Positions 9,173 to 57,803 of a DNA stretch of 64,000 nucleotides are shown piece after piece (the stretch's first letter is position 1; every line of letters starts with the position of its first letter). The notes under the pieces are model-generated. The model did not search any database. It worked only from the letters and a program-made list of their open reading frames with translations, and was not told where the DNA came from. The translations under genes and the position numbers were made by a program. Source of the DNA: Octopus vulgaris (Eukaryota); contig OX597823.1 of the NCBI GenBank assembly GCA_951406725.2, positions 82,398,001 to 82,462,000 of the forward strand. Direction: 5' to 3'.

Positions 9173-9403
9173 ATTGATAGAAATGTTAAGACAACAAAAG
9201 AATGAAAGAGACCTCGATATTATGTAAATAGAGGAATTTATTCGTAAATATGTGACAGTTATTCGGTAGCCATGATAAAACTCCGAGTTTCGGATGTCGG
9301 ATCGGAAACCCACGCTGCCATCTCTTCAGTTATCTGGCGTGAATTTCCACCCCAACATCCGAAACTCGGAGTTTTATCATGGTTACCGAATAACTGTCAC
9401 TTA
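9173..9403 (-). mobile_element. Penelope-like non-autonomous element with inverted end, inserted in (TA)n
   Basis: ~46 bp inverted repeat (9252-9297 vs 9355-9400), (TA)n on both sides, contains a hammerhead motif. Confidence 0.75.
9269..9338 (-). ncRNA. Type I hammerhead ribozyme motif
   Basis: gccagataa-CUGAAGA-gaug..cauc(c)-GAAA-cucggag-UU/uuaucauggc; helix I gauaa/uuauc extended by gcca/uggc, near-palindromic helix III, one extra C at the base of helix II. Confidence 0.7.
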
Positions 9404-9910
9404 TTATATATATATATATATAAAGTTTATATTTATTTGTGTTTCTGCCTGCGTTTCTTTATGCTTGTTCCCCACCATTTGACATCCTGTGTTGGTTTGG
9501 TTACACCCCCTATAAGTCAGCCATTCAACATAAAAGATTGTGATTAGAATAAGTATCACACTGAAAATATAATCAGTATTGTTCGACAAAACCTTTCATG
9601 GTCGCAATCCAATGAACGAAACAAGTAAAAGCTAAAGCATAAAAGATCCATTAACTCTGATCTACAAATGAGTAGAACAGATGATTGTTACTGTTTGCAT
9701 GTTTGGTAAGTAAGCTGTAAGCTACTTTCTTTCTCTGATGAAAAATCACGAGTAGGGACTCCAGATTAGACGACAATAATCAGTCGAAACTTTTAAGCGT
9801 GGTTTAACGACAAATTATATATGAAAGCCAGGATAAATATATATTTCGTGAAACATACTTACATGAATGTATTTACCATTCGCATATGTACATACACAAA
9901 CACATACATA

Positions 9911-10116
9911 CGAGGGGTTGCTGAAAAGTTCCTGTCATTGGGTGAAAAAGAAAATACAGGCGGGTCAGTCAATTATGATTTTATTCAACATATTCTTCTC
10001 TCAGATTCACACGCCTATTGCAGCAGTCCTTCAGATTTTCTAAGCCCTGTAAAAGAATTTAGATGATTAGGCCTCCAACCAGACTACAAAGTCAAGAACT
10101 TTTCAGCACCCCCTCG
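9911..10116. mobile_element. Mariner-type MITE
   Basis: TIRs CGAGGGGTTGCTGAAAAGTTC / GAACTTTTCAGCACCCCCTCG, TA on the left flank; second copy at 23775. Confidence 0.85.
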
Positions 10117-10721
10117 TTCACGCATGCACACAAACGTATGAATGCGCTTGTATGTTTTGATGATTTGTTTCTTCCATAGTGAATAGTTTCAGGCAATAGA
10201 CCAGTGTCTTTTCTTTATTGTAGTTTAATCTAATGAACACTACAGATAAGTATTAGCTGTATATTTATGTCTGGTTGTAGAATAATTTTTATACTAATGC
10301 GACTTTGTCCCAGATATAAACTGGAAAAAGAAATGTGTATTTTCTCAGTGTTTCTATGTATATAAAACAATCTATTTAACAATTCTGTATAAGCTCTGTT
10401 TCACATTTGGCTTTTCAAAATTATGTGTAGACGTTTCAATGTTTTGACTGGTCATCATAGCATATAATGTAAACAAATAGAAATTCGAGGGTTATGTGTA
10501 AACTATAACAGATTGACAACTTATTGCATTGGAATGAATTGTTTGCCATATAAAAACATTGAGCTTGTTTTGATACATGCACAAAACTATTTAAAAGATT
10601 TGTCTAAAGTCAGCCAACGAATAATCAACGAATAATAAACGTACTCATTTGATATGCTGGAAATAATAGCTAAATTTCTTTCAAACAACGTTGCCGTCTT
10701 AACAAGTAACTACACATGTTT

Positions 10722-10916
10722 CAAGACTTGGTACATGTCCAGCAATTTAGTGGAAGGGGTAAGTTGATTACACCAGCCCCAATGACCAACCGGTGCTTAT
10801 TTTATCGACCTCGAAAAGAACAAAAAGGCAAAGTTGATCTCGGCAGTTGATCTCGGATGAAATGCGGCTAAGCATTTTGCCCGCCTTGCTAATGATTCTG
10901 TCGGCTCGACGCCTTC
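10722..10916 (-). mobile_element. SINE family A, diverged
   Basis: TTTTATCGACCTCGAAAAG..AAGGCAAAGTTGATCTCGGC..GAAATGCGGCTAAGCATTTTGCCCG..CTCGACGCCTT. Confidence 0.7.
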
Positions 10917-11464
10917 ATACATGTAGTTAGTAATATACAGAAAGATGTGGCGGCTACGGCTAGAATACTTTTGGATATTGGGTTTGATTCATAATACCTG
11001 AAAAGGAAGTTAAACAGCAACAACAACCTATCACAATAATGTAATTGATAAAAACACGAACGCTACATTTGATATCGACATTCACCGCAATCACTGGACA
11101 CTAAGTAACGAACGGAGAAGTCATTCATTTGTATCAATTCACCGTTAAGACAAGTAAACACACATCTAAGATATAAAAAGAGATTGTTATTTAGCATAAG
11201 GTCAACGGTGATAGACATCTATGATCTGTAGCATTTTAGCCATTACCGTTCCATCATTTCCATGCTACCTAGATCTATATTAGTCAATATGTGGTTTCCT
11301 TATTTAAAGACTGAAGTGTATGGATTGAGAGATGGCAAATCGGATGGTGTCATCGGAGCTTCTGAGTTTGTTTGACACACGTCAAAGTAGAAAACCTAAC
11401 CAGTATAAGTTATGTACTACTGTGAGCAATGACATTATAGTGACATGGATATGTTTCGTTGGTT

Positions 11465-54922: not shown

Positions 54923-55089
54923 AATACATACATACACACACACACACACACACACACACACACACACACACACACAAATACAAACACACACATATGTGCA
55001 ACTCTGTATCTAAATATATATGTGAATATGTGATTCTATTTTTGTATTTATATTTAAAATCTGTACGTGTTTTATGTGTAATGTGTGCA

Positions 55090-55465
55090 TAAGCGAGGGA
55101 GTTGCTGTGTGGTAAGTAGCTTGCTTACCAAACACATGGTCAAATGACTTCTACTATAGACTCGGGCCGACCAAAACCTTGTGAATAGATTTGGTAGAAG
55201 GAAACTGAAAGAAGACCGTCGTATATATACATACATGTGTGTGTGTGTGTGTGTTTGTGTGTCTGTGTTTGTCCCCCAGCATCGCTTGACAACCGATGTT
55301 GGTGTGTTTACGACCCCGTAACTTAGCAGTTCGGCAAAAGTTACCAATAAAATAATTACTAAGCTTACAAAGAATAAGTCCTGGGGGCGATTTACTCGAC
55401 TGAAGGCTGTGCTCCAGCATGGCCGCAGTCAAAATGACTGAAACAATTGGAAGAATAAAAGAATA
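55090..55465 (+). mobile_element. SINE family B with an internal deletion of the B-box region
   Basis: Head GCTGTGTGGTAAGTAGCTTGCTTACCAA, body and tail as 37554. Confidence 0.85.
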
Positions 55466-56119
55466 AATGAATATATATGCACGTGTTTGTGTGTGTGTGT
55501 GTATTTATGTTTATTTGTATGTATATATGCATATGTAGATGTTTTTTTTCCATGTGGTGTGTGCGTACTTGGTGGAATCTAGATGAATACAGTGTATGAA
55601 AAGCGTATTAAGGTGTGGTTGCTCTGAGTGTGAGATTCTTGAAAGTTCAAATTCCTTGTGTAGATGTTTGGTGACCTTAGTTGACATTCTATTGAAGCTT
55701 ATTACTGTAGAACAATTTCTTGGCATTCTGCTGACCTCCCAGGGTGGATGCAGTCATCCATGAATTCTATAGAATCTTTAAATTATCAGCCATTTAATCC
55801 ACCATCTCCCCACCTGTGTAATTACTGTTCTAAAAATATTTTTTCCATTTTATTTTGCACATATTTTTATGTTATTTTATTTCTACTTCATTTGTTATTT
55901 TAATTTTCTTGATCTCTTATAGTTCCTTGTTATTTGACTTCAATTGACGATGGTGAATCCTTTAATTTCATTTAGCACTTTATCTTAATCGACATGAAGG
56001 TGTTTAAATGTGAAGACATTTTTTCTAGAATAATAGAGCTGCTATTTATTTTTCCCGACCAAATGAATATAATTTTATGCAGTTTCGGCCTTCCATACTT
56101 TGCACATATTAGTTCCAAC

Positions 56120-56325
56120 TTTTTCCACAAGGCCAACGATTTTGAGGGAAGGATTAAATCGATTACATCGATCTCATTAATCAGCTGGTACTTATTTTAT
56201 CACCCCAAAAAGGACGAAAGGCAAAGTGAACCTCAACGGATTTTGAACTCAGACCGTAAAGATGAACGAAATGCCACTAAGTAGTTTGCCCAGTGTTCTA
56301 ACGATTCTGCCAGCACGCTATCTTA
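56120..56325 (-). mobile_element. SINE family A, diverged
   Basis: CTGGTACTTATTTTATCACCCCAAAAAGGACGAAAGGCAAAGTGAACCTC..TTTGAACTCAGA. Confidence 0.75.
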
Positions 56326-57249
56326 ATATTTTGCATGTATCAAAAACGTATGTATTATTCCACTCATATTCATAATATTCATATTTATGTTTAATATCAT
56401 TCACCATCTTGCATTGAGAATCAACTTCAGATTATTATATATTTTATTAATATTTGTAAGTGCATGATTTGTTATCATTGAAATAGATTATTATCACCAG
56501 CCCATGCCTAACAGAATTTCCATAATATGAATAGGATAATATTACCTATTTTAGTTTGATACCTATATTTTATATCACACACGACTTCAGTCAGGTTTTT
56601 AAATCTATAATTGATTTATCATTGGATACTCAGAGTTACATAGTATTGTGCAGTATTAACAAAGTTTCGTTTTTTTCATCAAAATATCTGACACCAGAGT
56701 CGTTTTTAAGATTATTAAGTATCATATTTGAGTCTAATCTGACGATGTACTAATTATTCTAAGAAATGTTTGGTTTTGGAATTAGTATATTTGGTCTGGC
56801 GAAAAGTAACTACTTAACATTAGATTCGTATTAAAATCCATACACCTTTCAAAGATATTTCTTTGAATTTGGAATACCTCATTGAATGTATTAGTGAACT
56901 TGGCTTATAAAGCTTACAAATTATCGTTTATTTTTTTCACCATCCCTTTTGATCGAAATTCGACCCATTTTTTTTCCTTCTCTTCTTCCCAAAAAGAAAA
57001 CCTCTACTTTGAATTTTATATATATTAACCGAATTTTGTTCCTTCTGTGTTCAGCCCTGCGTGGCTAATAAAGAAATCTATCGCAATCTGGCCAGAGACA
57101 GATGGAACGTAATTAGGCGGGTTGCTGTCCCTATAGTATTCTATTCTAAAAATTTGACTGGACAATTTCTCAGGGTATTCCTCGTAAAATTCATCGATTT
57201 TAGTCTATTATATTATATTACTCTTTACCACAATACTACAATAATACAG

Positions 57250-57803
57250 TATTAAATCTCAGAGCGAGATGTAAACAGTAACCGCTCAACAACGTAAAGT
57301 ATAAAAGCCATCTCAATATGGCTAACCACAAAGTGGGGGCGTTACTGTAGCTTTTAGCCCCAGGAGATCGACGTCTCCAGCTGGCTTTAGACACACTTTC
57401 TGTGCCCTTCAGGTATTTGCAAAGGGAAGTCATCCCTTCCTCGTAAGCCTTAGTGATACGCACCGGACCGCGGTTTCGAGATTATTGTCTCTTATCAACG
57501 GGCGGTAACCACCAGGTCACGATGAAAGGCAAGGCTTGCTTTGCAAATATATAAGAGTTTTTCTAGTGACGTCTGCCACTGATTTCGAAAAACTGACTGT
57601 AAGCATTATTAAATCTCAGAGCGAGATGTAAACAGTAACCGCTCAACAACGTAAAGTATAAAAGCCATCTCAATTTGCAAATACCTGAAGAGCACAGAAA
57701 GTGTGTCTAAAGCCAGCTGGCGACGTCGATCTTCTGGGGCTAAAAGCTACAGTAACATCCCCACTTTGTGGTTAGCCATATTGAGATGGCTTTTATATTT
57801 TAC
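57250..57803 (-). mobile_element. Non-coding Penelope-like/retrozyme-like element: 357-bp unit, 68-bp terminal redundancy, ~130-bp inverted end
   Basis: Direct repeats 57250-57317 and 57607-57674; 57674-57803 is the reverse complement of ~57294-57423. Confidence 0.85.
57459..57504 (-). ncRNA. Type I hammerhead ribozyme, U3-A8 variant
   Basis: cgcccg-UUGAUAA-gaga caauaa ucuc-GAAA-ccgcgg-UC/cggugcg; perfect palindromic helix III ACCGCGGU, GUC site. Confidence 0.8.

Follow-up and report, generated by a model that had tools for sequence, protein, structure and literature searches.

Can a natural hammerhead ribozyme family carry a changed pair between core positions 3 and 8, and does such a ribozyme still cut? 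The question is raised by a 64,000-nucleotide stretch of Octopus vulgaris DNA (GenBank assembly GCA_951406725.2, contig OX597823.1, forward-strand positions 82,398,001 to 82,462,000; hereafter the window), in which seven hammerhead cores show this pair as C-G, U-A or G-C. A first-pass annotation, made from the letters of the window alone, had read the three pairs as compensated changes and the variant cores as probably functional. We found that one of these cores, GUGAACA, is the fixed core of a young Penelope-like element (PLE) encoding a reverse transcriptase (RT) and a GIY-YIG endonuclease, and that C3-G8, U3-A8 and G3-C8 all occur in one homologous clade. Judged by its sequence, the GUGAACA family likely provides a natural and probably slow example of a variant that we found reported only as a laboratory mutant.

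Cores in the window and their family states

The window is AT-rich, microsatellite-dense animal DNA. All seven core 7-mers (7/7) are present in it, every one on the minus strand. Their first bases are 9329, 20029, 40920, 14745, 57498, 38169 and 38641; the positions first given for them are the low ends of the motifs. The letters at positions 3 and 8 are indeed complementary in all three variant copies (GUGAUCA, UUGAUAA and GUGAACA). However, all seven are type I hammerhead folds of mobile repeats belonging to separate families, so that the window alone shows no covariation, and its three pairs do not amount to a covariation test of compensated changes.

We define the family state as what the relatives of a motif carry genome-wide when positions 3 and 8 are left free in the search pattern. 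The idea that the variant pairs are family states held for UUGAUAA (72/74 matches U3-A8) and for GUGAACA (94 of the first 100 of 1,346 matches to a narrow pattern G3-C8), and failed for GUGAUCA, whose relatives are C3-G8 in 88 of the first 100 matches and G3-C8 in none. The window thus contains one G3-C8 family rather than two, and the view that the G3-C8 families are its most unusual feature stands for the motif at 38641 only.

A G3-C8 hammerhead family

The motif at 38641 and the insertion that carries it are as follows.

38599..38648, minus strand: G3-C8 minimal type I hammerhead, core GUGAACA at 38641-38635, predicted cut between 38606 and 38605
38443..38677, minus strand: 5'-truncated Penelope-like insertion, a pseudo-long terminal repeat (pLTR) with the G3-C8 hammerhead; L312 is a full-length relative

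The family has the minimal type I core (U4 G5 A6, A9, G12 A13 A14 A15.1, U16.1 H17), helices I and II, G10.1-C11.1, an extra base after A9 and a palindromic helix III; by letter it departs from C3/G8 of the CUGANGA pattern, with Watson-Crick pairing of 3 and 8 kept. In the window copy the extra base is G, helix II has 5 bp, the helix III palindrome is AAUAUU and position 17 is U. This copy is damaged relative to its family, helices I and II each having one mismatch, and folds no better than its shuffled versions (z -0.05), whereas the intact copy L121 does (z -3.06), with a minimum-energy fold of a 7-bp helix I, a 5-bp helix II and the extra G following A9.

A wider genome pattern gave 6,130 exact G3-C8 matches against 572 with a single change (208 G3·G8, 180 G3·A/U8 and 184 non-G3·C8), and none for the reversed-pattern control. 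These are matches and not independent events, because inverted arms count twice and 13/30 loci in one sample share flanks. The subfamilies vary in loop II and retain stems and core, and helix changes that preserve pairing were seen as C-G/U-A in helix II, as U-A to U-G in helix I, and as G-C/A-U in the C3-G8 sister family described below. In the contigs of four runs labelled as four organisms, no variant of at least 5% was present at position 3 or 8; among the runs listed for the family, none is on record as RNA. An older G3-C8 family, which has C at position 7, a different loop II and a palindrome of 4 nt, shows this pair in 27/49 matches when 3 and 8 are left free, the rest being mostly transitions; its copies are 79% like their own majority, which equals the young family at 79/104 downstream columns. 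A metagenome scan for the G3-C8 motif gave 15 matches, of which none passed the hammerhead descriptor.

The G3·G8 copies (208) occur in all loop subfamilies (e.g. L314, L367 and L381) and cluster on C16; their excess over the transition mutant G3·U8 could be a propagated intermediate or a mutation hotspot. Genome-wide the family is balanced between strands (3,109 vs 3,021), yet all seven window motifs (9269-57512) lie on the minus strand.

The Penelope-like element carrying the ribozyme

The insertion at 38443..38677 contains what looks like a tail and is in fact the first 31 codons of the open reading frame (ORF) of the element, with its ATG at 38549; a short inverted stub lies at its 5' end and (TA)n at its 3' end. 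Short G3-C8 copies elsewhere likewise have inverted 5'-truncated arms and (TA)n flanks, with two 3' ends about 60 nt apart. One locus, L186, led to a GIY-YIG frame, and a search with this frame gave 150 scored matches, 29 of them of equal score, with open frames of up to 1,025 codons. At the ORF ends in L274-L315, a set that includes some overlapping loci, 44/51 are followed in the fetched DNA by a matching ribozyme at a distance of 0.93-1.24 kb, and every one of these (44/44) reads GUGAACA with positions 3 and 8 left free. L312 has the order ribozyme-ORF-ribozyme, its ATG lying 56 nt past the predicted cut and its "tail" again being the first 31 codons; the motif sits in the pLTR about 1 kb beyond the ORF stop.

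The GIY-YIG domain scores 25.4 bits against a Pfam cut-off of 22.6. The RT is indicated by a YVDD motif in L304 and by 59% identity to an RT-labelled Octopus vulgaris protein, while Pfam RVT_1 found no match in the ORF. Neither L304, which is 5'-truncated, nor L312, which has an early stop, is both intact and full-length. With a single ORF for RT and C-terminal GIY-YIG, tandem or inverted pLTRs, a one-sided tail and microsatellite targets, the element has the features of endonuclease-containing (EN+) PLEs. Among 21 diverged ORF-linked loci (71-90% protein identity), the 10 readable cores are 6 G3-C8, 3 G3·G8 and 1 U3·C8. The ORF has no match inside the 64-kb window.

The majority of short G3-C8 copies share a start about 57 nt ahead of the predicted cut, right after CTAAC...TTTCT(C/T)AG (L312:4700-4722, L186, L304). 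This start site could be a splice acceptor or a transcription start.

A GIY-YIG fragment in the window (21609-21971, minus strand) comes from a different PLE group, a very abundant one with 13,616 first-look candidates. A descriptor scan of eight long-ORF loci of that group (L236-L243) found no hammerhead.

Sister lineages with other 3-8 pairs

Homologous sisters of the element differ in the 3-8 pair. A pattern for non-G3 cores gave 3,785 matches of a UUGAAAA family, U3-A8 in 82 of the first 100, which is homologous to the G3-C8 family downstream of the ribozyme (DNA score 56.5 vs a maximum of 46 in 500 shuffles; peptide 43 vs 36 in 2000). A canonical CUGAAGA sister surfaced with a pattern fixing neither C3 nor G8; it is C3-G8 in 13/18 copies, and 3/6 tested copies exceeded all 300 shuffles. 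We also found a second young full-length PLE with 59% identity over the RT region and frames of up to 1,312 codons in its best copies (L476-L505, e.g. L480, G000:C5:115840523-115845895, minus strand), whose core CUGAUGC has C at position 9, where A is normally invariant.

A tree built on the endonuclease region (17 rows, with six outgroups, row L417 being under half filled) gave the G3 lineage support of 97/97, two C3-G8 rows 95/93, the U3-A8 lineage 100/100 and the joint clade 99/100. Therefore, the covariation sought by the first-pass annotation exists, outside the window. A supposed ancestral C3-G8 subfamily within the U3-A8 lineage was dropped, since it fell to 3/68 once positions 3 and 8 were left free.

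The other cores of the window

The remaining six motifs are the following.

38124..38176, minus strand: core GUGAUCA, a decayed member of a minimal hammerhead family that is C3-G8
57453..57512, minus strand: U3-A8 type I hammerhead, core UUGAUAA at 57498-57492, in a retrozyme-like unit of about 360 bp (roughly 57250-57620)
14701..14758, minus strand: C3-G8 type I hammerhead with U4C, core CCGAUGA at 14745-14739, in a retrozyme-like unit at 14530-14865
9270..9337, minus strand: hammerhead-like motif with the canonical C3-G8 core CUGAAGA; an inverted copy of its 3' half lies in front of it
19929..20035, minus strand: canonical C3-G8 hammerhead, CUGAAGA, with a long loop II, passing the descriptor
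40867..40926, minus strand: canonical C3-G8 hammerhead, CUGACGA, with a palindromic helix III, passing the descriptor

The GUGAUCA motif at 38169 is one worn member of a C3-G8 family and does not represent a G3-C8 family. The first 100 of the 127 matches to this family hold, besides the 88 C3-G8, 7 C3·A8, 2 U3·G8 and one each of U3-A8, G3·G8 and C3·U8, and even the best relatives are only 84-87% similar to the window copy. Since the family is C3-G8, the complementary double change at 38169 arose by decay, a process that the first-pass annotation had held unlikely to give three such changes. Members of this family (L032-L060) have a 7-bp helix II flanked by two unpaired A residues, one following A9 and the other preceding G12, in place of a direct 10.1-11.1 pair; in L222, two copies flank a GIY-YIG frame.

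The cores at 57498 and 14745 belong to non-coding retrozyme-like units with already known kinds of core change. Both units have the layout of a metazoan non-LTR retrozyme, in which a type I hammerhead sits in a non-coding monomer of 170-400 bp that is repeated in tandem: two matches of the 57498 family are spaced by 358 bp (C28:11929299 and 11929657), and the 14745 unit occurs elsewhere in the genome as 365 bp x 3.4 in tandem. CCGAUGA is a C3-G8 core with a change at position 4; it was read in 95 of the first 100 of 404 matches, so U4C is the state of a young family. The two units, C3-G8 and U3-A8, are themselves homologous (score 143.5 vs a maximum of 95.5 in 300 shuffles). The ORF beside a 57498-family copy in L021 is not the unit's own: its owner is an older PLE that falls in the clade of the G3-C8 element and was the target of the unit's insertion (L021:1346-1708).

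Among the relatives of the motif at 9329 (19 looked at), 14/15 readable ones have CUGAAGA. A strict descriptor that requires helices I, II and III was passed by 4/7 motifs (14745, 20029, 40920 and 57498), against a background of 0.72 matches per shuffled window (60 shuffles). The motifs at 9329, 38169 and 38641 fail it as they stand, and their families fold as hammerheads. Weak additional descriptor matches lie at 52903 and 49628. An Rfam scan of the window found no hammerhead family reaching its gathering score; among the matches listed, 57443-57516 scored 34.3 bits with Hammerhead_HH9, under the cut-off of 52.

Comparison with published systems

Published work is cited here for the passages covered. 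The closest counterparts are the minimal type I hammerheads of PLEs (Cervera and de la Peña 2014, PMC4209133), which share with the octopus family the place in the pLTR of an RT and GIY-YIG element, the extra nucleotide between 9 and 10.1, G10.1-C11.1, a short palindromic helix III and a common U17. These hammerheads cut weakly and as dimers (PMC4209133). Natural U3-A8 is described there, with families of about 1,300 matches in Schistosoma mansoni and one U3·G8 example, and so is the fact that CUGANGA searches miss such families, a point that the first-pass annotation had rightly made. In contrast, the consensus of that set is CUGANGAH, with no G3-C8 core in the rows compared, whereas the octopus family has G3-C8 fixed in a young ORF-bearing element and has homologous sisters with C3-G8, U3-A8 and mismatched states. 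Natural U3-A8 covariation, and U4C tolerated in a viroid, are also known from a survey of natural core variants (Perreault et al. 2011, PMC3088659), in which G3-C8 is not named as natural in the passages covered and was not found in a term search of the supplements.

G3-C8 itself is known from engineered ribozymes. Within the CUGA region, no change other than the C3G/G8C swap gave rescue (Roberts et al. 2023, PMC9901934); the swap partly restored a PLE hammerhead (Frangieh et al. 2024, PMC11167929) and, according to a "data not shown" remark, is more active without C17 (PMC3884650). These hammerheads share the swap with the octopus family, the rescue being partial and the single mutants inactive; they are, however, laboratory mutants, while the octopus one is a natural family, known here from its sequence. 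Full-text searching found neither a natural G3-C8 family nor a study of octopus hammerheads, with coverage that was incomplete for figures and some key papers and so does not establish absence from print.

With Neptune/Nematis-type EN+ PLEs (Craig et al. 2021, bioRxiv 10.1101/2021.04.23.441226) the element shares an RT followed by a C-terminal GIY-YIG, a Cys motif in the linker, inverted 5'-truncated copies, a one-sided tail and microsatellite targets, a likeness by features; it differs in having about 1 kb of microsatellite-rich DNA between stop and pLTR. The units at 14745 and 57498 resemble metazoan non-LTR retrozymes (PMC7229834; bioRxiv 10.64898/2026.07.22.740005) in being non-coding, 358-365 bp long and found in tandem copies, with a type I hammerhead and a short helix III. 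Unlike those published, they have U4C and U3-A8 as family states and many inverted pairs, as read from DNA.

Does the G3-C8 hammerhead still cut?

We give a probability of about 0.6 to the reading that the G3-C8 hammerhead of the young PLE still cuts at a slow rate, probably requiring that two copies pair. In a transcript spanning pLTR-ORF-pLTR, the two motifs would lie about 4.3 kb from each other, base-pair by their palindrome, cut at a low rate after U17 and release the unit RNA. The G3-C8 pair would keep the geometry of the active site, as in the laboratory mutants, and U17, which is found in the whole clade and is probably older than the swap, may have permitted it because no G3-C17 pair could then form. 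Selection on the 3-8 pair is likely to be weak and episodic, because mismatched cores have spread and most copies keep the sequence 5' of the cut.

Several observations weigh against continued cutting. Out of 71 copy arms, selected by their 3' motif and with overlapping loci kept, a single one has its start at the predicted cut and 31 begin between -65 and -56, before any part of the ribozyme; since the copy ends show no peak at the cut, most templates were either uncut at the site or copied across a re-joined one. The energies are no clearer, the active dimer being predicted at -27.0 kcal/mol against -26.4 for two monomers and -32.0 for another dimer. Nor do the counts speak plainly for selection: copy numbers reflect few master elements, as seen in the shared flanks, G3·G8 exceeds the transition G3·U8 (71 of the first 100 of the 180 G3·A/U8 matches), and G3·G8 is also found in 3/10 of the older ORF-linked copies with a readable core. 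By itself the swap is weak support, because a purine at 3 and a pyrimidine at 8 give a Watson-Crick pair at even odds, and the 3-8 count of one alignment (A1) is circular because its C3-G8 rows were chosen by a pattern fixing C3 and G8. In the clade, one older subfamily (68 matches, 3 and 8 free) has 35 U3·G8, 27 U3-A8 and 3 C3-G8, and the second young full-length PLE combines C3-G8 with A9C in 53/53 copies at 30 loci. A further lineage (L337-L366, 30 loci), fetched by the DNA downstream of the core and read by eye in old copies, has about 13 C3·A8, 5 U3·G8, 2 C3-G8, 2 U3-A8 and 3 others, 5/30 loci being without a core. Finally, in another PLE, from Anolis, cleavage needed protein and was dispensable for insertion in vitro (PMC11167929). 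Because mismatched states were amplified in the clade and the copy ends give no sign of cleavage, the label "probably functional" first attached to these cores is not established.

The same observations could be read as a true hammerhead homologue without catalytic selection, kept for protein binding, transcript start or translation, in which positions 3, 8 and 9 drift and G3-C8 became fixed by chance in a master copy. We regard this as possible but the less probable account. It accords well with the amplification of U3·G8, C3·A8 and A9C cores and with the retention, in most short copies, of the region 5' of the cut, as it does with the Anolis PLE, whose ribozyme mutants insert normally in vitro and for which there were no RNA-seq reads ending at the cut (PMC11167929); moreover, some PLE clades multiply without hammerheads (Craig et al. 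2021). What drift would not readily explain is that G3-C8 was kept through two amplification waves and that the majority sequences of five lineages agree in U4, G5, A6, G10.1-C11.1, GAAA and U17. Downstream of the ribozyme, only 25-47% of columns align between these lineages when gaps are counted, except for 76% between the two G3-C8 families; several of the core letters were fixed in the collecting patterns. A palindromic DNA transposon of the miniature inverted-repeat kind, with GUGAACA as a chance look-alike, might be suspected from the many short copies that are near-perfect palindromes and from the failure of the window copy in the descriptor. We rejected it as extremely improbable: inversion points vary, the tail is one-sided, the targets are (TA)n, the motif is tied to an RT/GIY-YIG ORF and the homologous sisters have the canonical CUGAAGA. 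The original proposal, in which all three non-canonical cores of the window are functional compensated variants and two G3-C8 families are present, is also quite improbable. It has in its favour the complementary letters in all three and the fact that 2/3 are family states; against it, 38169 is a lone decayed copy and the 38641 copy has broken helix pairs.

Beyond slow cutting by paired copies, a bolder version would see the clade as a natural walk that led from C-G to U-A by way of an amplified U·G and, perhaps by way of G·G, to G-C, with A9C added in a young element; G3-C8 would then be active, selected and the first of its kind, and the weaker cores would be aided by protein. We hold this only tentatively and think it rather doubtful.

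Implications

The C3-G8 pair was established by laboratory swaps, and in the literature covered only U3-A8, together with one U3·G8 row, is natural. A young element with G3-C8 in thousands of places means that searches with CUGANGA and UUGANAA miss whole families. Since the clade offers matched C-G, U-A, G-C, U·G, C·A and A9C alleles in one scaffold, together with the protein, whether PLEs need hammerhead cutting becomes testable.

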